Both the position numbers and the translations under genes were made by a program. A stretch of DNA of 64,000 bases from Candidatus Parcubacteria bacterium. Lineage in GTDB: Bacteria > Patescibacteriota > Minisyncoccia > Phycocordibacterales > Zambryskibacteraceae. Position 1 is the first letter of the stretch, and every line of letters begins with the position of its first letter. Positions 4,283-20,231 of this stretch are shown piece after piece. The DNA lies in assembly GCA_019661865.1 (NCBI GenBank), contig JAIFWJ010000001.1:110809-174808 (forward strand). The letters are read 5' to 3'. Below the pieces are notes generated by a model. That model was given only the letters and a program-made list of their open reading frames with translations. It made no database searches and was not told the origin of the DNA.

Positions 4283-4826
4283 CTTGCTCTTTGCCTTCTG
4301 TTTTGGCGAAAGTATTTAATTTTTCGAATGCAGTTTTAAATTCCGGAAGCTCTTCTATCTTAGTTATGCCTAAGAAGCGCAAGAGTTCCGTCGTGGCTTT
4401 ATAACTAAAACTTCTCTCCCCTGTTGTGGAGTCCACTCTCTCTATAAGTCCTCTTATGAGTAAGTTACGCAGAATAAAGTTTGAATTTACTCCTCGGATA
4501 TAATCAATTTCTCTTCTAGAAATCGGACCCTTATAAAGAATGATAGAGAGTGTCTCGAGCCCTGCCCTACCAATGTCACGAGAGAGTTCTTCCTTCTGAA
4601 TTTCTTCAATTAACGAGCTTAGATTTGGGTGAGTACCGAAGCTTATTTCTTCACCATTTGACACGATGACTATGCCACGACCCTCATGACTTCTTTGTAA
4701 TTTGGAAATAGCGGAATCTATATTTTCGCGTGGTACTCCAAGTATCTTAGAGAGAGCTGTAAGTGAGATAGGCTCGTTTTTGAAAAGAAGTATGGCTTCT
4801 ATTTTCTGCTCGAGAGTAATGGACAT
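4275..4826 (-). CDS. scpB: segregation and condensation protein B
   Basis: 183 aa. ScpB winged-helix sequence, located downstream of scpA. Confidence 0.8.
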   Translation of the reverse strand: MSITLEQKIEAILLFKNEPISLTALSKILGVPRENIDSAISKLQRSHEGRGIVIVSNGEEISFGTHPNLSSLIEEIQKEELSRDIGRAGLETLSIILYKGPISRREIDYIRGVNSNFILRNLLIRGLIERVDSTTGERSFSYKATTELLRFLGITKIEELPEFKTAFEKLNTFAKTEGKEQDE

Positions 4827-4829
4827 GAG

Positions 4830-5582
4830 TTATGCGTAATTAGGAATACCTACAGTTTCTGTTTCCATTTCAATATTCTTGCCTTCTTGAGTGACTTTTA
4901 TGGCTCCGCGCTTCACCAACTCTAGCATGGCAAGGAAGCCCACAATAACTGCCACTTTCTTTTCCTGTGTAAGCTTACCTGTAGCACCCAGGTGCTTAGA
5001 TGCAAAGTCATTGAAGCTCATCTTTATTCCGCGTGCAATTCTTTCTGAAAGTTTCTCTATAGTTTCTTCTAGAGTTATCATTTTCCTCACTATTGCTTTA
5101 GGAAGTACTTCTTTCTTTGGCAAGGCTTCTATGAGTGCAAGTAAAGCTTCGGAAAGATCTGATACAGTTGTTTTCTTATCTGGAGAGAAAACAATAACTT
5201 CTTTCTTGGATGGCAACTTTTCGAAAATGATTTGTTTGCCGAATATCTTTCGTATTTCTTGTGAAAGTTCTTTTACTCGAGCATAGATCTTAAGTCGATG
5301 TTCAAGGTCCTCGATACTCCCCTCTTCTTCATCTGTAAGTTCGAGATTCGGAAGTAATGAACGGGACTTCAAGAGCATGAGAGTTGAAGCCACTACGATA
5401 AACTCTGCGCTCTCACTTATGGGAAACTCTTCGTGACTCTCGAGGTACGCTATGAAGTCATCTGTCACTTGGGAGAGTGAGACGTCTGAGACGAAGAGCT
5501 TCCTTTTCTCTATAAGGTCAAGAAGAAGGTCCAGAGGACCTTCGAAGACAGCCGTTTTGACCGAGTATTTAAACGCCTCCAT
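4830..5582 (-). CDS. scpA: segregation and condensation protein A
   Basis: 250 aa. Kleisin ScpA-like N-terminus (FEGPLDLLLDLIEKRKL). Confidence 0.8.
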   Translation of the reverse strand: MEAFKYSVKTAVFEGPLDLLLDLIEKRKLFVSDVSLSQVTDDFIAYLESHEEFPISESAEFIVVASTLMLLKSRSLLPNLELTDEEEGSIEDLEHRLKIYARVKELSQEIRKIFGKQIIFEKLPSKKEVIVFSPDKKTTVSDLSEALLALIEALPKKEVLPKAIVRKMITLEETIEKLSERIARGIKMSFNDFASKHLGATGKLTQEKKVAVIVGFLAMLELVKRGAIKVTQEGKNIEMETETVGIPNYA

Positions 5583-10846: not shown

Positions 10847-10876
10847 GCCAATTAAAAAGCCGCTTGTTACAGCGGC
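10847..10876 (-). terminator. rho-independent terminator of Nudix gene (stop codon in hairpin loop)
   Basis: AAGCCGCT-TGTTAC-AGCGGCTT, an 8-bp stem. On the minus strand it is followed by TTTTTAATT. Confidence 0.55.
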
Positions 10877-11373
10877 TTGTCATCCGGCACAATTTGATAC
10901 TCGAATGGCCTTTCGAGTGAGGCCTTGCCCTTGGTGTAGTAGACGTCGCCTTTAATTCTCTGTCCTCTAAATAGCGGTGTCATCCACTCCCTATCTGCTG
11001 GCATCATCTCCTCAAATGGCAAAAACGCCCACGAGAACCAAGTGCCTGGCCCCATCTCATCTGTTTCGGCCAGTTCGCCATTCCACATGCCGTGGTTATC
11101 CTTGTAGCCGAAGAAGACGTGACACTTGAAGATACGCTCACCAGCCTCGAAGAAGTTGATTACAGCAACTCGCTTGAGCTGGTCACGCCTAAGCACTGCT
11201 CCTTGGGTTTCAGCTTTGAACTCGCGTATGGCTGTGTCGAGAATTGTTCTATCTCGCTTAATTCTCTTCCCTCCCCATCCGTTCCATAAACCTGCACCAA
11301 CCTTTCTTTTCTTTCTTGCGAGCCAAACCAAATCCCATTGTCGTGGTATGACAATCGTACATTGTACACACAT
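10867..11373 (-). CDS. Nudix hydrolase (MutT-like)
   Basis: GLWNGWGGKRIKRDRTILDTAIREFKAETQG resembles the MutT GLWEFPGGK...RELxEExG Nudix box. Confidence 0.6.
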   Translation of the reverse strand: MCVQCTIVIPRQWDLVWLARKKRKVGAGLWNGWGGKRIKRDRTILDTAIREFKAETQGAVLRRDQLKRVAVINFFEAGERIFKCHVFFGYKDNHGMWNGELAETDEMGPGTWFSWAFLPFEEMMPADREWMTPLFRGQRIKGDVYYTKGKASLERPFEYQIVPDDKPL

Positions 11374-11436: not shown

Positions 11437-13020
11437 CTAGCTTAATGCTAGTTCTAAGTAGAAAGTTGAGCCTTTTCCCTTCCCTTCTGACTCTGCCCAA
11501 ACCTTACCATTATGTGCTTCTATAACTGCCTTTACGAAAGAGAGCCCGTATCCAGTGCTATTCACATTAACCTTGAGAGAGTCTTTACCTCTTCCACCTT
11601 TAGTAAAGAGTCTTGGTTCATCCTCTGGATCTATACCTACTCCAGTATCTTTGATTGTGAGGAGTGCCTTACCATTATGCTTGTTTAAACTCACCTCCAC
11701 TCTTCCTTCTGGTGTATACGCTATGGAGTTTTCGACCAAGTTCCGCACAACTTCTTTAAGTTGCAGTTTATCTCCTCTAAGCTTGTATCCATCGTCCTCA
11801 GCATTAAATTTAAATTCTAGTCCTTTACTCTTAGCATTCTCACTTTGTGTCTTAATCACATCTTCAACTACGTTTCTAAAGTCTATATCTTCGAAGTTAT
11901 AAATCAGTATGCCACTCTCTGCACTCGATCCCTGAAGTACCTGTCGAACGAAGTCCACACCCTCTGTGAGAGACTTGAGACCTTCCTCAAGCATGGGCTT
12001 AGCTTCAGATTGAACAGCACCATAATCACCACTGAGAAGCTCGCTGAAGATACCTTTAGACTTTGAAAGGTACCCTTTAATCTGATGATTCATTATATGT
12101 ATAAGATTCGTCTGTCCCTCATTAGCAATTTGCAACTGTTCAGTCTGTTGTCTTTCATGAATAAGAGATCTAATTAGTTCAATACTTCCAATAAGAATTA
12201 CAATAAATGCTGTTATGTTTACTGCAACGGCACTAGTAGATTTCGAAAAGATAATATTTGCAAAACTAAAGGTAGTAACAAGAAAAGCGATGAATGTAGC
12301 CGCAGCAAGTTTTAGGTTAAACAGCTTATATTTATAGATAGAATAAGAGGTCAAACCGATAAATGGTAATAAGAATAAAGCTGCAAAAGGTATAAATCCG
12401 GTGTTATTAAATGTAACTGGTAAAACGACATTAAATAAAATAATTAAACACGCAGTTAAAAACATACCAAGGAATACAAATATTGCCTGTTTCTTTAAAA
12501 CACCTACTGCTCTGCTTGCCTTAATAGATAACATGGTTACAGCTGCAAAAAGAAGACCGAAGGCCACTATTCCAAATAAAGCAATTCCCGGTCCCCTTTC
12601 TGGGTTAGTGACCTGGCCGATAGGAGCAACATACATAACGCTGGGGAATACTAATGGGCTTAAAGTTAAAAGTGCAACCAAAATTACAGTTGGAACGATT
12701 ATATATCTATACCATCGTGGAAATTCTAAGTCCTGTTTAGGAAAAACATATGCCAGTTGAAAAAAAAGCAGAGCATGTAAAGAGGAAATAAAAAGATGAA
12801 GTCTTAAGGACCAAAGAATAAGATCGGGCGCGCGAAATTGATATTCAAAATAATTTGAAATACCCCAGATTGCAGTTAGTAATGAAAAAGCGAAAAAGGT
12901 TCTAGTTGTAATACTTTTCCTATCATTTAGGTAGACAATAACTCCTAGTAGGGCAATTGCCGCTGTTGCTATACCAACAGTTAAAAGATCAAAATTTATT
13001 AAAGTTGGATCTAAATTCAT
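11437..13020 (-). CDS. sensor histidine kinase with multi-TM N-terminal sensor domain
   Basis: About 9 hydrophobic helices in the N-terminal 300 aa. DHp His region (IHIMNHQIKGYL). HATPase_c N/G boxes (VVRNLVENSIAYT, DTGVGI, GYGLSFVKAVIEAHNGKVWAES). AT-rich. 4-nt overlap with the upstream nitroreductase gene. Confidence 0.8.
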   Translation of the reverse strand: MNLDPTLINFDLLTVGIATAAIALLGVIVYLNDRKSITTRTFFAFSLLTAIWGISNYFEYQFRAPDLILWSLRLHLFISSLHALLFFQLAYVFPKQDLEFPRWYRYIIVPTVILVALLTLSPLVFPSVMYVAPIGQVTNPERGPGIALFGIVAFGLLFAAVTMLSIKASRAVGVLKKQAIFVFLGMFLTACLIILFNVVLPVTFNNTGFIPFAALFLLPFIGLTSYSIYKYKLFNLKLAAATFIAFLVTTFSFANIIFSKSTSAVAVNITAFIVILIGSIELIRSLIHERQQTEQLQIANEGQTNLIHIMNHQIKGYLSKSKGIFSELLSGDYGAVQSEAKPMLEEGLKSLTEGVDFVRQVLQGSSAESGILIYNFEDIDFRNVVEDVIKTQSENAKSKGLEFKFNAEDDGYKLRGDKLQLKEVVRNLVENSIAYTPEGRVEVSLNKHNGKALLTIKDTGVGIDPEDEPRLFTKGGRGKDSLKVNVNSTGYGLSFVKAVIEAHNGKVWAESEGKGKGSTFYLELALS

Positions 13021-14087
13021 TTAATTTCTGCTACTTCGTTTACATTAAACCTGCTCGAATGGGCGGAGGGAGAATCGGCATGTCCAACCCTGAACATAAA
13101 GGTGATAATTTCCTCGGGCTTAATTTTAAATGCCCTACCTATATTTTCATATGCTTCCTCAATCATTGCAATCTGCTTTGAAGAAAACTTCTCAGTATTT
13201 CCTGCTCTGATTTGATACATAAAAAACAATACTCCAGTTAAAGGCTGCAGACTTAATCCAAGTTTGGTTGAAGTAAGCCATAGTCTTTCTAAAATTCGAC
13301 CAACATTAACGAAGGTTTCTGGTGAGGTACTCTTTATTGTCAAACAACCAAAGGCTCCTGTCTTTGAATTTATCTCACCATTTTGTCTACCTACAGTTTT
13401 GTAGAAACCTATCTTATTTAGAACATTTATTACTGGCCAACTTTTAATTATTTTAAAAAAAATCTTTGCAGGAGAAGGAAGTTCTAAAGTCTCAATGTAA
13501 AATCCAATTTTTTTTCTAGCATCTTCTTCTTTTGTCCAATTTAAGTGGGTAAAAAAGAAATTATGTAAATGCTTATTACTGAACATTACTCTTTCATTTG
13601 TACTCCCAGCATGACCCAAAGTTTTCTTATTATTACTATCTATCGTCATATAAAAACCTATATCCTTGTTATTAAAAATGCCTTTTAGAATATCAATTTC
13701 ATGAGAACTCAGAGGGTCGGTTTTATAAGGTTTTCTATTAGTTGATCTCATACTAATATATTGAAAAAGAGAGTCTTTTTGTGGTGAGGCTGGAGTAAGT
13801 TTAATATGTGCTACATGATTTTTGTTTGTATCAGGAAAAGTATTAACTTCAGGGTTAAATCCAAAATGTTTAGCGGCTATAGTGATATTTTCAATTGCTG
13901 CTCCATTAGCCATATATGAGGCGCACTGTTCCCAGTTGTACAATGATCTGTCTCTATCAGGTAAGTTATATACATCAATCTCATTATCAGACACAATAAA
14001 TCTCCAAGGCTGGGCGTTCTCTCCAGATGGTGCTTTTGTTCCAGCCTCAATTATTTTTTTTATATTCTCATCCATTTTATAATCCAA
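13017..14087 (-). CDS. nitroreductase-family protein with two nitroreductase-like halves (SagB/McbC- or Acg-like FMN oxidoreductase)
   Basis: N-terminal APSGENAQPWRF nitroreductase signature. 356 aa, about twice the single-domain size. AT-rich codon usage. Confidence 0.65.
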   Translation of the reverse strand: MDYKMDENIKKIIEAGTKAPSGENAQPWRFIVSDNEIDVYNLPDRDRSLYNWEQCASYMANGAAIENITIAAKHFGFNPEVNTFPDTNKNHVAHIKLTPASPQKDSLFQYISMRSTNRKPYKTDPLSSHEIDILKGIFNNKDIGFYMTIDSNNKKTLGHAGSTNERVMFSNKHLHNFFFTHLNWTKEEDARKKIGFYIETLELPSPAKIFFKIIKSWPVINVLNKIGFYKTVGRQNGEINSKTGAFGCLTIKSTSPETFVNVGRILERLWLTSTKLGLSLQPLTGVLFFMYQIRAGNTEKFSSKQIAMIEEAYENIGRAFKIKPEEIITFMFRVGHADSPSAHSSRFNVNEVAEIK

Positions 14088-15258
14088 ACATTTTTCTAAA
14101 ATTTTCTGTAATTTCTGCTCTTCTAGAAACTTGATCTGAGTTGTGGTATGTAGGATCGAGCATGCTATCCATATTTACAAGAGATCTGTTCGATTCCAGT
14201 GGCTGATTATTTAGTACTTTTCTTACTCCATACGCTACAGCGGCTCCATTGAGTAGGGCTGCACCTCCTAATTGTGGCCAAGAGACGATTGTTTTTCCCG
14301 TCTCAAGTAAAGAGCCTTGCATTCTTTCAGTAACGTTCTCAGGGCCAACTAGTTGTGTGATAGTCTTTCCAATACCAAATTTGTCCAGATTTTTAAACAT
14401 TTCTAAAGTCACTTCTCCCAATCGGCCATGAAAGAAAGGTGTGTTTGGATCTATGTCATATCTTTCAATATCTACCACTCCATTATCACCATTATCAGCA
14501 GCTTGAAGCAGAGCGATTCCATGCTTTTTACATTGTTCGCGAATTAAATATTTTATTGGAAAGCTATCTAACTCATCGATCATAATGTCCAGACCGTCAA
14601 AAAACTTATCAATGTTATTTTCTTGAAGACCCTCTGGAAAAGTTTCAACTTCAGCATAAGGGTTTATTTGGTAAATTAACCTAGATGCCATATCAACCTT
14701 AAGAATTCCTAAATTTTCAGCTCCAGAAAGTATTCTATTAGTATTGGACAAGGCTAATTTATCCATATCAGCTAGCTTCATCCTTTTTGGCCCGCCCTGA
14801 AGTACTAGAGCGTAAGCAATGTTTGAGCCAACACTTAATCCGCCAATGCCAACTGTTGCGTTATAAAAATTCTTTTGTTCCTCTAAGTTTATGAGATTTC
14901 TATTGCGATTTGTTCGAACAAGCCAAAAGTCTTCTTCCGGGAGGATGTGAACCAGTGTGGAGTTCCAAGGGAAATAAACCCATTTGCCATGTTGCCAAGG
15001 AGGAGCTTCTTTTTTTAAACTTTCGAAGTATTTACTGAATTCCTCTTTATATGTGAGAGTATAAACTTGAGATGGGTTTTTAACTCCAAAAAGCTCAAGA
15101 TGTTGTTCCTCAAAATCATCAGATACATGTTGGATTCGCTTTTCAGATAACAATTTTTCAACCTTGTTCTGATCTGATTTATGTGAAAGATCAAAAATTA
15201 TAGGTTTCGAAATAACCTTATCATTTGAAATCGACTCTAGGGCTTTTTCTAAGCTCAT
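14077..15258 (-). CDS. E1-like ThiF/MoeB/MccB-family adenylyltransferase with ~110-aa N-terminal extension
   Basis: RTNRNRNLINLEEQKNFYNATVGIGGLSVGSNIA matches ThiF-family R..R...G.E.Q...VxGxGGxGS nucleotide-binding motif. 393 aa. 11-nt overlap with the downstream nitroreductase gene. Confidence 0.65.
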   Translation of the reverse strand: MSLEKALESISNDKVISKPIIFDLSHKSDQNKVEKLLSEKRIQHVSDDFEEQHLELFGVKNPSQVYTLTYKEEFSKYFESLKKEAPPWQHGKWVYFPWNSTLVHILPEEDFWLVRTNRNRNLINLEEQKNFYNATVGIGGLSVGSNIAYALVLQGGPKRMKLADMDKLALSNTNRILSGAENLGILKVDMASRLIYQINPYAEVETFPEGLQENNIDKFFDGLDIMIDELDSFPIKYLIREQCKKHGIALLQAADNGDNGVVDIERYDIDPNTPFFHGRLGEVTLEMFKNLDKFGIGKTITQLVGPENVTERMQGSLLETGKTIVSWPQLGGAALLNGAAVAYGVRKVLNNQPLESNRSLVNMDSMLDPTYHNSDQVSRRAEITENFRKMFGL

Positions 15259-15312
15259 TTAAGTATTAAAAGTATAGCAAGGTGATGTTGTATAACAATG
15301 GAGATCTATCTA

Positions 15313-15340
15313 TTGACAATATGCAAATTTGGTGTATTAT
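15313..15340 (+). promoter_or_regulatory. near-consensus sigma70 promoter (TTGACA-16-TATTAT) driving the plus-strand gene at 15376
   Basis: TTGACA at 15313..15318 and TATTAT at 15335..15340. GAGGA SD before the ATG at 15376. Confidence 0.55.
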
Positions 15341-15375
15341 TATGTAAGTAACTGACCTTTCAATCGTGAGGAAAT

Positions 15376-15837
15376 ATGCTCAGAATCAATGCGATCTTCG
15401 TCTGCCCGACATTAGCGCTTCGCAATGCCTTGATAAAGGTTATCAGCGAAACTGGGGGTCCAACGCCTGTGCTAAGGAGCGACACTGTCTCGGCACAACG
15501 GGCACACTATCTACCAGTGGAATCTAGTACCATAATCAATCACCCAGAACCAATGATGGTCTCGGCTCTGGGCCAGCACTGTGCGTGTATTGCAATAGAG
15601 ACCGCTGATCGCTGGGCGGCAGCCGAAAAGGCTGCGGCCATTTTCAGATCAGAAGGTATTGAGGCTAGTGCACGTCATGATATTCAACCTGAATTCCCGA
15701 AAGGATTGCTGAGCTTCGTGGTGGTACCAGCACTCGAGGGAATTACACTGATGTACTGGCCCCGGCCAGAAGATCTAACACCGGATGTCATCGCGGCATT
15801 ACCGAGTCGTATTCCTTGGGAACGGCCTAGCGCTTAA
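15376..15837 (+). CDS. hypothetical protein (GC-richer gene embedded in AT-rich island)
   Basis: 153-aa ORF with strong promoter and SD. Composition differs from surrounding AT-rich genes. No recognisable motif. Confidence 0.5.
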   Translation: MLRINAIFVCPTLALRNALIKVISETGGPTPVLRSDTVSAQRAHYLPVESSTIINHPEPMMVSALGQHCACIAIETADRWAAAEKAAAIFRSEGIEASARHDIQPEFPKGLLSFVVVPALEGITLMYWPRPEDLTPDVIAALPSRIPWERPSA

Positions 15838-17336
15838 TTGCGCTGGGCTGTTTTGTTTCTTACCCACTTCTGTTTAGTGCCGGGTTTAAAGTAAGTGGGA
15901 TGTTCATATGGCCAAAAGACTATTTGGGGGGTGATGCGATCTTTAATTGTTGCTGATAGATAATGATATTCTGTACTCTTCTCCATTAATGCATCAAACA
16001 CTGCGCTTGTGACAAGTTTTTTGATATTCGGATCCTGCTCAACTCCAGGTCTTAATTCTATATTTAGCTCTAAATACTCGTTCTGTTCATTGTTGTGTTC
16101 AGTAAATAGAGTAAATTTACCAGTTATGTAATCCTCTAAAACAGGATGCTCTAGTCCAGCCTTAACATATTCAGGATAAATTATTGCACCATATAACTTA
16201 GTGGAAAGATCAGTTCTCTCGTAGATATACACAAATGGAAGTTCAGTTATGGTTTTTCTTATACCGGCTTTCTGAATTTCTTTCTCGAGATCGTAACCAT
16301 TTTGCTTAAAAATTGCCTTTATATCATCGAATGTATGTACTCCACCATTGTCCCCTATCTCATATCTGACAAGAGGTAATGCGCTCATCCCACTGACTAG
16401 AATTTTTTTGTTCTGTGATTCAAAGTTTGTAAAATCAGGGTTAAATTGAGCCAGAGTTGGAAGTCGGGTCGCATCTATGAAGAGATCTTTGTAAAGTTTT
16501 TTATTTTTAAGTGCAATCCTTCTAATTAAAATAGATAGTGGGGTCTCTTCTGCCATAGTTCCCAAATCTGCGCTACCGTATATATTCATTGTATCCCTAT
16601 AAATATTTTTGATGCCAGTCTTCTTGGCTATGTAATCTCGAAATTTCTCGGAGAAAGCTTCCGCAGCAAACACAACTTTTAAATCAAAATCTTTCCAATT
16701 GACTTCATTATTTTTTCCTTCGTCTATTACATCTTTGAGAAATGGTGGGTAACCACAAAGAATGACTTGATCAAATTTTGGAGCAATATTTCTCATTGCT
16801 TCAAAAATTTCTTTTTTATTTACACCTGGAGTAAGGATAGAGAATGGATAGCCAGCATCAGATAGATATCTAAATGCCTGATATGTGATAACTCCACCAA
16901 TCCAAACACCCATTCCGAAGCCAACAATTACTAATGTAGATTTATCTTTTTTAAGCCCGCTCGATTTAATAAATAATTCATGTAAGACTGCAGATTGAAA
17001 ATCCACGTCCTTGCTTCTTGGGAAATAGAACGGTGCACCAGTAGATCCAGAGGTGCTTGTAAAAACCATTGGTTGAGACAGTGTACCTTTGAGACAAAGA
17101 TCCTGAAGCTGGTTTCCTTTTAAATATTCAGATCGAGTAACAGAAGGAAGGTTTTTGAAATCATCAAAATTTCTGATCTTTTTTGGATCAATTCCTTTTT
17201 TGGTCAGAAAATCTTTATAGGCGGGCACCTGCTTGGAACACAGGTTGAAGAGCTCAAGTAGTTTTTTTTCGCTCTCTTTTTTCCAATAATTGCTTTTCTT
17301 ACTTTTTATCGAATTTATTACCTTTCCAGAGTTCAT
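15834..17336 (-). CDS. adenylate-forming enzyme of the PaaK / coenzyme F390 synthetase / CapK family
   Basis: TSTSGSTGAPFYFPRS P-loop-like motif typical of PaaK-type ANL enzymes. YGSADLGTMAEE (YGxTE-like). 500 aa. AT-rich. Confidence 0.6.
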   Translation of the reverse strand: MNSGKVINSIKSKKSNYWKKESEKKLLELFNLCSKQVPAYKDFLTKKGIDPKKIRNFDDFKNLPSVTRSEYLKGNQLQDLCLKGTLSQPMVFTSTSGSTGAPFYFPRSKDVDFQSAVLHELFIKSSGLKKDKSTLVIVGFGMGVWIGGVITYQAFRYLSDAGYPFSILTPGVNKKEIFEAMRNIAPKFDQVILCGYPPFLKDVIDEGKNNEVNWKDFDLKVVFAAEAFSEKFRDYIAKKTGIKNIYRDTMNIYGSADLGTMAEETPLSILIRRIALKNKKLYKDLFIDATRLPTLAQFNPDFTNFESQNKKILVSGMSALPLVRYEIGDNGGVHTFDDIKAIFKQNGYDLEKEIQKAGIRKTITELPFVYIYERTDLSTKLYGAIIYPEYVKAGLEHPVLEDYITGKFTLFTEHNNEQNEYLELNIELRPGVEQDPNIKKLVTSAVFDALMEKSTEYHYLSATIKDRITPQIVFWPYEHPTYFKPGTKQKWVRNKTAQRN

Positions 17337-17416: not shown

Positions 17417-18283
17417 TTAAAACCCTTGGCTTTTGAGCTCCTCGACCGCTTTTTTAGCCTCTCGGGAGAGTTTTTCTGGGAGTTTTACAGTGATGCGGAC
17501 ATATAAGTCCCCTCTCCTGTCCTTGGCACTGCCAGAGAATGGCACACCCTTATTCTTAACGCGTAAGATGGTGCCAGAGTTCGTGCCCTGGGGGACTCTA
17601 AGGAGTATTTCCCCATCGAGGGTAGCAATGTGCTTCTCTACCCCGAGGAGAGCCTCAGAGAGCTTCAGAGTCATATCCATGATGAGGTTGTATCCCTCTT
17701 TTCTGAAGGTTGGATGGCGGCGAACATGTACCTTTATAAAGAGGTCTCCAGGCATACCACCCTCTATAGTCTCACCCATGCCGCTCATACGGATCATCTG
17801 ACCATCATCTATACCCGGCGGCACTTGAATCTTCACTTCCTTCTGCTTCACAAGGCGACTATTTATAACTACCTTGCGCTCTGTGCCGAATATGGATTCT
17901 TGAAATGAGAGCTCAATGTCTACGGCAATATCTCTACCACGACGCACACGTTTTCCGCCGAATATAGATGAGAGTATGTCGCTCAGATCTCCGGGGTCGA
18001 AGCCCTGGCCCGAGAAGTTTGAGAAGTCGAAGCCGAAGTCCGATGGATTGAACCCGCCTTGGAACCCACTGTTTGCATCTGCTGAGCCGAAGGTGTCATA
18101 CTGCTGCCTCTTCTTTTTGTCTCCTAATACTGAGTAGGCCTCATTGACCTCCTTGAACTTAGCTTCGTTCCCAGTCTTCTTGTCTGGGTGATACTCGTGA
18201 GCAAGCTTTCTGAAAGCTTTTTTTATATCGTCCTCACTTGCCCCTTTAGGAACTCCTAGAATTTTGTAATAATCTTTCGCCAT
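17417..18283 (-). CDS. dnaJ: J-domain co-chaperone DnaJ/CbpA-like (no Zn-finger repeat)
   Basis: N-terminal J domain (DYYKILGV…HPD). G/F-rich linker. C-terminal substrate-binding domains. 288 aa. Confidence 0.85.
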
Positions 18284-18308
18284 GTGATTAGCTTATAGGT
18301 TCTTGGTA

Positions 18309-20231
18309 CTAGCTGCTAGCTCCACTAGTATCATTGTTCTCGTCCTTAAAGTCTGCGTCTTTAACATCTGGATTTGTATTTTGTTGTGAATTGTCAGACG
18401 GTTGCTGTTTATTTAGGTATTCACCGATCTTCTGGATTTCTGCAGATAGAGCTTCTGTAGCACTTTTTATAGACTCAAGTGTGCCACTGTCCTTCTTTTT
18501 CCTTAGAGCTTCAATCTTCTGATTCACACCTGATTTGATGTCATCTGGAATGCTGGGAACGCCTGACTGCGCAGGCAGGTCCTTAAGAGCTTTTTCTGAT
18601 GTATATATGAGTTGTTCTGCATTATTCTTCGCATCGACAAGTGCTTTTTTCTTCTCGTCTTCTCCAGCATTCATTGCAGCTTCCTTCTGCATCTTATCAA
18701 TGTCTTCCTTAGAGAGACCAGAGCTCGCCTCTATGCGTATGGACTGCTCCTTGTTGGTGGTCTTGTCCTTGGCCTTCACGTTCAAGATACCGTTCGAGTC
18801 TACGTCGAATGTTACTTCTACTTGTGGCATGCCACGTGGTGCTGGAGGTATGCCGTCTAAGATAAATCTGCCTAAAGACTTATTATCTCCCGCCATGGCT
18901 CGCTCACCTTGGACAATATGGATCTCTACAGAAGTTTGGTTATCTCCTGCAGTAGAAAATGTTTGTGACTTGGCTGTTGGGATTGTGGAGTTCTTTTCAA
19001 TAAGCTTAGTGGCTACTCCACCAAGAGTTTCAATACCAAGTGAGAGAGGTATAACATCAAGAAGTAGAATGTCCTTCACATCACCAGCCAGCACTCCTCC
19101 CTGTACAGCGGCACCAAGAGCCACCACTTCATCAGGGTTAATGGACTTGTTGGGCTCCTTGCCGAAGAACTTCTTCACTGCATCTGCTATAGCTGGCATA
19201 CGTGTCTGACCTCCTACGAGCACTACTTCCTGAATTTCCCCAACTTGGAATGGTGATGCTTCCATGGCCCGCTTGGTGATAGACATAGCACGCTCGATGA
19301 ACTCACTTGAAAGCTCTTCAAGCTTGGCTCGAGAGAGTTTAAGAAGTAAGTGCCTTGGTCCCGATGCGTCGGAAGTTATATATGGAATATTTATTTCAGT
19401 CTCTGTAGCTGTAGAGAGTTCGATCTTGGCCTTCTCTGCAGCTTCATCGAGACGCTGAAGTGCCAGTGCATCACTACGCACATCTATGCCACTTTCTTTT
19501 TTAAACTCTTCTGCGATCCAACCGATAATCTTCTGATCAATATCTTTACCGCCTAAGTGGGAGTCGCCATCTGTGGAACGCACTTCTATGGACTGCTGAC
19601 CATCTACATCAGCAACTTCAAGTATGGAGATGTCGAAGGTACCTCCTCCGAAGTCAAATACTGCTATCTTCTCGTTCTTCTTTTTATTGAAACCATATGC
19701 AAGAGCTGCTGCTGTGGGCTCGTTTATAATACGCTTCACATCGAGACCTGCTATCTGTCCTGCATCCTTGGTGGCCTTTCTCTGCGCATCGTTAAAGTAT
19801 GCTGGCACAGTGATAACAGCCTCAGTGATCTTCTCACCTAGCTTGGCCTCTGCGTCGGTCTTAAGCTTCTGTAAGATCTGCGCCGAAATCTCTTCTGGTC
19901 TATAGTCTCTGTCCCCCATATGGACTAGTACACCTCCATCTGGTCCTGGCTTTACTTGGTATGGTACTGCAATAGTGTCCTTCTGTACTGCTGGATCGGA
20001 GAAACTATGTCCAATAAAACGCTTGATACCGAAGATTGTGTTCCTCGGGTTGGTCACTGCCTGACGCTTGGCTAGGAGTCCCACTAGGCGCTCACCAGTT
20101 TTAGAGACAGCCACAATAGAGGGAGTTGTGCGTGCTCCTTCTGCATTCTCAATGATGCGAGGACTACCCACTTCCATCACTGCCACTGCCGAGAAAGTTG
20201 TACCTAAATCGATACCAATTATTTTGGCCAT
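18309..20231 (-). CDS. dnaK: molecular chaperone DnaK (Hsp70)
   Basis: IGIDLGTT…, DLGGGTFD, and an acidic C-terminal tail. 640 aa. Confidence 0.97.

Follow-up and report, generated by a model that had tools for sequence, protein, structure and literature searches.

A conserved ligase, ThiF-like enzyme, flavin-dependent oxidase and histidine kinase cassette in Parcubacteria as a possible variant of oxazolone biosynthesis clusters

A 64,000-nucleotide stretch of a Candidatus Parcubacteria genome (GenBank assembly GCA_019661865.1, contig JAIFWJ010000001.1, positions 110,809 to 174,808; hereafter the window, whose own numbering is used throughout) was analyzed for a cassette of four minus-strand genes that is bordered by a Nudix gene (10867-11373) and dnaJ/dnaK (17417-20231). 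From upstream to downstream, the cassette encodes a PaaK-like adenylate-forming (ANL) ligase of 500 amino acids (aa) (15834-17336), assigned by its fold model and weak PaaK profile scores; a ThiF/E1-like adenylating enzyme of 393 aa (14077-15258; Pfam ThiF, NCBIfam PRK07877); a tandem nitroreductase-fold flavin-dependent oxidase (FDO) of 356 aa (13017-14087; NCBIfam Acg-type, PRK14851 and PRK07877); and a seven-transmembrane (7TM) histidine kinase of 527 aa (11437-13020; HisKA_7TM and HATPase_c). A GC-rich plus-strand gene, ORF153 (15376-15837), which belongs to a protein family with no known domain, lies between the ligase and ThiF-like genes. The list of open reading frames (ORFs) bore out the places of all five genes and the motifs quoted for them in a first-pass annotation made from the sequence alone, and its family calls (PaaK, ThiF, nitroreductase and histidine kinase) agree with Pfam and NCBIfam profile searches and, for the ligase fold, with a structure model and Foldseek. 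Every ORF in the interval from the Nudix gene to dnaJ could be accounted for, with no N-acyl amino acid synthase (NAS) among them, and the intergenic gaps of 63, 117 and 80 nucleotides (nt) are too small for a precursor ORF. A protein identical to one from the window carries the NCBI locus tag KW790_00790.

The two central proteins correspond to the two parts of a single known enzyme. The ThiF-like protein matched profile positions 5-349 of the 722 positions in NCBIfam PRK07877 (“Rv1355c family protein,” 321.8 bits), and the FDO matched positions 374-720 of the same model (188.0 bits). The FDO also matched positions 327-662 of the 679 positions in PRK14851 (215.5 bits), C-terminal to the match of the ThiF-like protein (positions 22-167). 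Because the two proteins match complementary halves of one NCBIfam model, they are, judged by their sequences, a split version of the two-domain TrzS/Rv1355c enzyme. Rv1355c is TrzS, whose ThiF domain cyclizes N-acyl-tryptophan in an ATP-dependent reaction (Kleetz et al., PMC12856293), and whose FDO domain desaturates the ring with O2 to yield N-acyl tryptazolones (PMC12856293). The reaction sequence is common to OxzB, TyzBC and TrzS: an N-acyl aromatic amino acid is adenylated on its carboxylate by the ThiF part, which also forms the oxazolone (azlactone) ring, after which a flavin mononucleotide (FMN) oxidase uses O2 to desaturate the bond between C-alpha and C-beta (PMC12856293, PMC10404671, PMC12596934, bioRxiv 10.1101/2020.06.11.147165). 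The same chemistry is carried out on tyrosine or phenylalanine by TyzB/TyzC (PMC10404671), OxzB (bioRxiv 10.1101/2020.06.11.147165; PMC12596934) and stieleriacine-type clusters (PMC12479983). Oxazolones do not survive exposure to acid or methanol (PMC12856293).

Residue-level comparisons point in the same direction. The Pfam ThiF domain covers residues 119-262 of the ThiF-like protein, so that the N-terminal extension of about 110 aa described in the first-pass annotation is real, and it is a part of the Rv1355c family. A nucleotide-binding loop and a catalytic Asp are present, as in oxazolone synthetases, and GIGGLSVGS, S171-N-T-N-R175 and D228/E229/D231 are invariant in 18 ThiF-like sequences from the Candidate Phyla Radiation (CPR). 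The protein is 36% identical over 278 residues to a fused, plasmid-borne Mycolicibacterium homolog of the Rv1355c family (L085), in which D202 aligns with the Mg/ATP-binding D231; through a numbering offset of +15, D231 would be equivalent to D217 of TrzS_Msmeg. No Cys is invariant among the 18 homologs, which makes an E1 thioester or sulfur-transfer mechanism unlikely. The FDO, for its part, matched the Acg family over its full length as a tandem fold (135 bits), had a Nitroreductase/TM1586 match at its N terminus and matched Acg (2ymv) among PDB sequences, and 52 CPR orthologs conserve APSGxNxQPW, R114-x-T-N117-R118, H175, H181, W184, W270, Q/H281-P282, R333 and R346. The ThiF-like gene comes first and the FDO gene follows it, adjacent and co-directional, which is the arrangement of the known synthetases where the two parts are not fused. 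It is very probable that the pair act on a small molecule as enzymes of the oxazolone-synthetase type. The proposal that an E1-like enzyme and a nitroreductase-fold oxidoreductase act together here in azoline-like heterocycle chemistry, within a biosynthetic or modification cassette, is thus supported, while the accompanying view that they fit no described class gives way to the match with both halves of the Rv1355c/TrzS oxazolone-synthetase family (PMC12856293, PMC10404671).

Other E1-like systems fit less well. Matches to ThiF and MoeB models scored 47-69 bits against cut-offs of 152-633, and no small beta-grasp ORF of the ThiS/MoaD type was found, in agreement with the first-pass annotation. 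In contrast to ThiF, MoeB, MccB and TcdA systems, the cassette has no ThiS/MoaD partner, conserved Cys or CxxC, rhodanese, peptide substrate gene or E2/JAB gene. An anti-phage E1/E2 system (CBASS Cap2 or Bil) was considered and rejected: PADLOC gave only generic ThiF-domain matches of at most 35 bits, and there are no E2, JAB or ubiquitin-like (Ubl) partner genes. Separately, linear plasmids of Streptomyces and Kitasatospora encode unfused ThiF-like proteins with the same N-terminal extension (32-35% identity over 86%-90% of the query), which may represent a further variant of the family. In one of these (L086, a plasmid of Streptomyces sp. NBC_01471, 5917-7715), the ThiF-like gene overlaps a downstream GNAT acetyltransferase gene and no FDO is annotated nearby.

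The cassette is widely conserved. A scan of one genome per species with the ThiF-like protein identified relatives in 123 species, from which 80 loci were retrieved, with 81 relatives' loci after de-duplication. All scanned loci were from Patescibacteria (Kaiser-, Taylor-, Adler-, Nomura-, Lipton- and Uhrbacteria, and Paceibacteria), and the order PaaK-like ligase, ThiF-like enzyme, FDO and kinase recurs in about 80 species. The ligase gene is directly upstream of the ThiF-like gene in 60 out of 73 assessable loci and within 10 kb in eight more. The FDO gene adjoins the ThiF-like gene in 45 out of 71 loci and is found elsewhere in the locus in 16 more, and the kinase gene is downstream of the ThiF-like gene in 53 of the 63 loci (directly after the FDO gene in 33). 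A metagenome scan that started from ligase homologs, and so tested the linkage in reverse, gave 54 assessable loci and 80 further relatives; a ThiF-like gene was immediately downstream of the ligase gene in 48 of the 54, and was present somewhere in the locus in 53. Three ligase-homolog loci have the ligase, ThiF-like, FDO and 7TM kinase genes in order, with grpE-dnaK-dnaJ upstream in two and trpS-aspS downstream in one. Flanking dnaKJ and trpS/aspS genes recur in about a dozen species, and the cassette in the window likewise lies between them. One locus (L074, 6849-16007) carries two tandem cassettes, one with a lyase gene, a ligase gene (32% subfamily) and a ThiF-like gene, the next with a ligase gene (53% subfamily) and a ThiF-like gene, which points to paralogous pathways that use different substrates within a single genome. 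Metagenome-assembled genomes with the cassette (e.g., those of L005, L007 and L008) are often labeled “uncultured Candidatus Saccharibacteria bacterium” (TPA), a label that looks generic and not like a placement.

The ligase is the member for which sequence profiles say least. It had no Pfam match, its score against the PaaK model TIGR02155 was 45.3 bits (cut-off 646), and FlxY and F390 synthetase were also weak NCBIfam matches; no paa catabolic genes are found in the window, and what the protein has in common with PaaK is limited to the fold and the P-loop motif. An AlphaFold2 model built from 20 homologs (pLDDT 84.8) gave AclA (9egb, Tenacibaculum discolor) as the top structural match, and Foldseek neighbors included BT_0428, PaaK1/2, the 2-hydroxyisobutyryl-CoA ligase HCL, ClxA, McbA and GH3/JAR1, at 10%-17% identity. 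The 20 homologs show no variation in the P-loop (T95-S-G-S-T-G100) or in the C-terminal motif G486-x-K488-Q-K490-W. The modeled fold thus identifies the protein as a very divergent ANL enzyme of the PaaK clade, and the second adenylating enzyme that the first-pass annotation saw in the block is upheld on structural grounds. As ClxA, McbA and GH3 demonstrate, an enzyme with this fold can join an acyl-adenylate straight to an amine or hydroxyl and needs no coenzyme A (CoA) to do so. Beyond the CPR, the only good ligase homolog in the plasmid collection was in Nonomuraea gerenzanensis (L090, NZ_LT559118.1, 6690-10362; 34% identity over 93% of the length), where the genes directly ahead of it encode a HisKA_3 kinase and a response regulator of the LuxR type, and no ThiF-like or FDO gene is nearby. 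This is a second, independent link between the ligase clade and two-component systems.

In many relatives, a further gene lies directly beside that of the ligase (36 out of 69 assessable loci). It encodes an ELFV dehydrogenase in 17 loci, an aromatic amino acid lyase in 10, a class I/II aminotransferase in eight and an SDR protein in one. The best NCBIfam matches, all below cut-off, were the tryptophan dehydrogenase ScyB for the ELFV dehydrogenases (267-294 bits), the flexirubin tyrosine ammonia-lyase FlxA, ahead of HutH, for the lyases (550-581 bits, cut-off 700) and HisC for the aminotransferases (245-254 bits). To judge from these matches, the dehydrogenase, lyase or aminotransferase (35 of the 36 loci) would strip the alpha-amino group off an apparently aromatic amino acid and leave a carboxylic acid, which is the natural substrate of an adenylate-forming ligase. 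Moreover, all 10 lyases occur with a distinct ligase subfamily that is 30%-36% identical to the ligase of the window, compared with 38%-63% for all others, and this pairing suggests matched substrate specificity. The window represents the minimal form of the cassette. Four relatives (L006 at 11964-13310, L015, L039 and L059) have a gene for a radical-SAM/SPASM protein inside the cassette or next to it; in L006 it is located between the ThiF-like and FDO genes.

The kinase is a conserved fourth member of the cassette. Its HisKA_7TM (E=3.6e-12) and HATPase_c (E=1.8e-24) domains were identified by profile, and 60 full-length orthologs keep H312 as the phospho-acceptor, together with the N, G1 and G2 boxes and a number of transmembrane residues. 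Single-domain (receiver-only) response regulators recur in relatives, just upstream of the dehydrogenase-ligase genes or between tandem cassette kinases (L030, L033, L046, L059, L060, L066, L067, L076 and L082; L020, L023, L024, L031, L056 and L062). A protein of 303-322 aa without Pfam or NCBIfam matches occurs in 13 loci, mostly encoded directly upstream of the cassette kinase (L073 at 4328-5296, L006, L007, L008, L012, L014, L016, L021, L035, L040, L055, L061 and L072), and contains a VDFGFGG-like motif reminiscent of S-adenosylmethionine methyltransferases; it is not found in the window. In another relative (L001, 14411-17545, on a 1-Mb Patescibacteria contig), the cassette kinase gene is followed by one for a giant (>1988 aa) SpvB/TcdB/RHS-repeat toxin-like protein.

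Among described systems, TrzAS (Rv1356c-Rv1355c in mycobacteria, and Rhodococcus) is similar to the cassette in its N-terminal extension, its ThiF-then-FDO order, its nucleotide-binding Asp and its FMN-type motifs. TrzS is one protein of about 710-720 aa, whereas here two genes encode proteins of 393 and 356 aa, with identities of about 36% for the ThiF part and about 18%-24% for the FDO; and where TrzAS has a TrzA-type N-acyltransferase and an Actinomycetota host, a PaaK-like ligase and a 7TM kinase occur here in a CPR host. The NAS, ThiF and nitroreductase clusters of the TyzACB (Rv2336-2338c), OxzAB and stieleriacine types have separate adjacent or overlapping ThiF and FDO genes, as here (TyzB/TyzC), and in these clusters ThiF and FDO act after an enzyme that supplies the N-acyl aromatic amino acid; none has been reported with an adenylate-forming ligase, an adjacent amino acid lyase or dehydrogenase, or a sensor kinase. 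The deaminate-then-adenylate logic is shared with FlxA-FlxY of flexirubin biosynthesis (NF053541, NF053551), as a FlxA-like lyase gene directly precedes the ligase gene in 10 relatives, but both scores are below cut-off (ligase 24-40 bits, cut-off 520), there are no polyketide genes and the window has no lyase. ClxA (closoxazole), McbA and GH3/JAR1 have the two-domain ANL fold in common with the ligase, at only 10%-17% identity. No acyltransferase gene was found to recur in the cassettes of the 81 and 80 relatives, in a survey that included no direct homology search with a true NAS reference. Neighbors of the plasmid-borne homologs were tried as such a TrzA/NAS reference and rejected, as the genes downstream of them, for a TrwB-like hypothetical protein and for a generic GNAT, are unrelated. 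No literature was found that links oxazolone or ThiF-nitroreductase systems to CPR bacteria, and the two key papers on these systems mention neither ligase partners nor Patescibacteria.

Taken together, these results lead us to read the cassette, with moderate confidence, as a Parcubacteria (CPR) variant of the oxazolone biosynthesis cluster that is fed by a ligase and accompanied by a sensing kinase. In the proposed pathway, the ligase would replace the NAS by adenylating a free carboxylic acid and coupling it to an amino acid without CoA, in the manner of ClxA, McbA and GH3. The acid could be arylpyruvate-, arylacetate- or coumarate-like, made next door from an aromatic-type amino acid in the relatives that carry the additional gene; in the genome studied here it would be either scavenged or produced through a gene not linked to the cassette. 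The ThiF-like enzyme would then carry out ATP-dependent cyclodehydration of the N-acyl amino acid to an oxazolone, the FDO would desaturate the ring to give an oxazolone-type product, possibly a signal, and the 7TM kinase may sense either this product or a cue related to it. The arrangement of the genes as (regulator)-(deaminase)-ligase-ThiF-FDO-kinase would parallel the proposed order of the pathway. CPR bacteria are generally without fatty acid biosynthesis and much of cofactor biosynthesis; a pathway in which a ligase starts from free acids would suit such organisms.

In the window, the cassette is interrupted by ORF153 and by a 117-nt divergent intergenic region (15259-15375) that has promoter-like sites in both directions. 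On the minus strand, sites ahead of the ThiF-like gene are located at 15363-15336 (10/12 consensus positions) and 15298-15271 (9/12, with TG). On the plus strand, the TTGACA-16-TATTAT promoter that had been described for ORF153 is present at 15313-15340 (11/12), as is the GAGGA 4 nt ahead of the ATG. ORF153 and the ligase gene converge on a hairpin at their 3' ends (15819-15854; 15 pairs, of which eight are G-C), which was detected in a scan for terminator-like structures. These promoter and terminator calls are no more than matches to a consensus, and shuffled sequences contain no fewer such sites than the region does. Because ORF153 is convergent with the ligase gene, the two share the hairpin at their ends and promoter-like sites precede the ThiF-like gene, the arrangement suggests that the four genes here are probably two transcription units and not the single minus-strand operon of the first-pass annotation; the hairpin is possibly a bidirectional terminator that divides the cassette in this genome. 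The 4-nt overlap between the FDO and kinase genes (ATGA) is firm. The 11-nt overlap previously assigned to the ThiF-like and FDO genes is obtained only if the FDO starts at the TTG at 14087, and an ATG at 14075, 1 nt past the stop of the ThiF-like gene, is an alternative start.

ORF153 itself (153 codons, GC 0.52) is a real but sporadic passenger gene and not a component of the cassette. It has 42 homologous cluster representatives at E≤1e-3 (four at E≤1e-30) and no match in Pfam, NCBIfam or PADLOC. The site between the ligase and ThiF-like genes is occupied by a homolog in only one of the 81 relatives (L005, 9407-9859, 46% aa identity), where the gene is in the opposite orientation and has a GC content of 0.54 within a background of 0.35; the other homologs are found in unrelated neighborhoods. 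Searches for inverted or direct repeats around ORF153, as traces of a mobile element, returned only short matches of chance size and nothing that would account for an inversion or insertion. The possibility that the segment encodes a structured RNA was rejected, since Rfam gave one chance-level snoRNA match across 10.5-18.5 kb and protein homologs exist instead. ORF153 is therefore within the cluster physically, as first described, without being a part of the cassette.

The cassette was originally proposed to be an acquired island because of its AT-richness. The composition is borne out and not marginal, with GC contents of 0.335-0.371 for the cassette genes compared with 0.447 for the rest of the window, and GC contents at third codon positions (GC3) of 0.256-0.302 compared with 0.438±0.066; the lowest value among the 45 other genes that encode 150 aa or more is 0.303. 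Beyond this compositional anomaly, the features of a genomic island are not seen: the syntenic site in relatives is not empty, no tRNA or border repeats were found at the edges of the block, and the ORF list contains no integrase or transposase there. Given the same gene order and site in relatives and the lack of tRNA, repeat or mobility marks, our conclusion is that a large Parcubacteria clade inherited the cassette at this position from its ancestor and has maintained it vertically, and that it is not a mobile island. The first-pass annotation had named gene order conserved together with sulfur carriers or other primary-metabolism partners as evidence against its reading; the order is indeed conserved, while such partners are absent. 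In relatives, the cassette is AT-richer than its own flanks in 45 out of 62 loci (mean difference -0.018, sign test P=5e-4), with the window at the extreme end (-0.09). AT-richness may thus be a general property of the cassette, arising from weak codon bias or exchange among relatives. With respect to origin only, a recent in situ replacement by homologous recombination with an allele from an AT-richer Parcubacteria relative is unlikely but has points in its favor: the GC3 of all four genes is under that of the 45 other window genes, and the closest ThiF relatives, those of L005 (76%) and L001 (72%), belong to cassettes that are just as AT-rich (GC 0.355 and 0.363) and are more similar than other loci would lead one to expect at their DnaK identity (71%-72%). 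Weighing against replacement, the bias may be intrinsic given that it recurs in most lineages, the flanking genes are highly expressed housekeeping genes, and ThiF and DnaK identities still correlate (rho=0.62).

Several observations weigh against the oxazolone reading as a whole. Neither half of the putative split enzyme reaches the cut-off of 476 bits for PRK07877, a model built for fused proteins; only the sum of their scores (509.8) exceeds it. In TrzS_Msmeg, the FMN site of the FDO domain is marked by R540, which has been mutated there, and Q651; FDO residue R166, which aligns with the presumed R540 (through the inferred +15 offset and the Mycolicibacterium proxy), varies between E, R, Q and K in the CPR. 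The neighbor of the ThiF-like gene encodes an ANL ligase, and an adjacent NAS of the OxzA, TyzA or TrzA type is missing. The ligase is at most 17% identical to any solved enzyme, a distance at which sequence does not tell an amine from a CoA acceptor. In the window, ORF153 and the hairpin stand between the ligase gene and the other three, no ELFV dehydrogenase, aminotransferase or lyase gene that could supply a deaminating enzyme was found, and neither a response regulator nor a second histidine kinase is encoded in the 64 kb, which agrees with the first-pass annotation's description of an orphan multi-transmembrane kinase. The GC3 deviation of the cassette here (-0.14 to -0.18) exceeds that of most relatives. 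Furthermore, many Parcubacteria live in low-oxygen habitats, whereas known FDO desaturation needs O2.

It is rather unlikely that the ligase is an ordinary aryl- or acyl-CoA ligase, either feeding an N-acyltransferase encoded elsewhere or belonging to a separate pathway that is merely syntenic. Its best sequence and structure matches, PaaK, BT_0428 and HCL, are CoA ligases, its gene is probably separated transcriptionally from the ThiF-like gene by ORF153 and the hairpin in the window, and its Nonomuraea homolog occurs without a ThiF-like or FDO gene nearby; on the other hand, searches from either end find the ligase and ThiF-like genes side by side almost universally, the 160 loci share no recurrent acyltransferase gene, and the PaaK model score of 45 bits is far from the cut-off of 646. 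An explanation that would instead place the cassette in housekeeping or stress physiology, through TcdA-like cyclodehydration of a nucleoside or cofactor or as an Acg-like flavoprotein and kinase redox sensor, is very unlikely. In its favor, FDOs of the Acg family are part of a stress regulon, the ThiF core has its best PDB sequence match in TcdA (E=7e-16), the cassette lies among dnaKJ and aminoacyl-tRNA synthetase genes and is vertically conserved, and the FDO and kinase genes overlap by ATGA; nonetheless, the Rv1355c-family score (322 bits) is much greater than that for TcdA (43 bits), the lyase, dehydrogenase and aminotransferase genes that recur in relatives point to small molecules derived from amino acids, and the cassette is accessory, having turned up in no more than 123 of the scanned species representatives.

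A role for the two central enzymes, as E1-like enzyme and nitroreductase-fold dehydrogenase, in modifying the C terminus or backbone of a ribosomal peptide or protein, as in ribosomally synthesized and post-translationally modified peptides and thiazole/oxazole-modified microcins, is highly improbable. The pairing of folds that would recommend this is offset by the lack of any precursor peptide gene, evident RiPP recognition element-type peptide clamp or YcaO. The gaps leave no room for a precursor, no small ORF is conserved in relatives and no YcaO is encoded in the 64 kb, as the first-pass annotation had stated for YcaO and for the precursor. The N-terminal extension is common to Rv1355c/TrzS, a small-molecule enzyme (PMC12856293), and the enzymes encoded next to the cassette act on free amino acids. 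Within the oxazolone reading, the more ambitious proposal is of a self-contained “amino-acids-in, oxazolone-out” signaling circuit, which would build the oxazolone through the ligase from aromatic amino acids that are scavenged or deaminated locally, would operate without fatty acyl-CoA or acyl carrier protein and in which the cassette's own 7TM kinase, joined in many relatives by a single-domain regulator, would be the oxazolone receptor. We regard this extended form as doubtful.

Oxazolone synthetases were discovered between 2021 and 2025, and the physiological role of their products is described as unknown by the authors (PMC12856293). The systems described so far are from Pseudomonadota, Actinomycetota and Planctomycetota, always with an NAS. 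The core chemistry considered here is therefore already known, and what is new is the substrate-supplying enzyme, the constant sensor kinase partner and the phylum. If the oxazolone reading is correct, genome-reduced Parcubacteria, which are usually thought to be nearly devoid of specialized metabolism, keep a conserved small-molecule pathway, and an ANL ligase, often fed by a lyase, dehydrogenase or transaminase, can supply its substrate, which would widen the chemistry to look for. Thousands of CPR proteins that databases call, for example, “molybdopterin/thiamine biosynthesis adenylyltransferase,” “phenylacetate-CoA ligase” or “hypothetical protein” would have their names corrected. As a constant operonic partner, the 7TM kinase would also provide a testable handle on the purpose of oxazolones. 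Should the signaling circuit prove true, it would reveal the first oxazolone receptor together with a physiological role for these compounds, as a quorum-sensing-like or host-sensing system of ultra-small episymbiotic bacteria.

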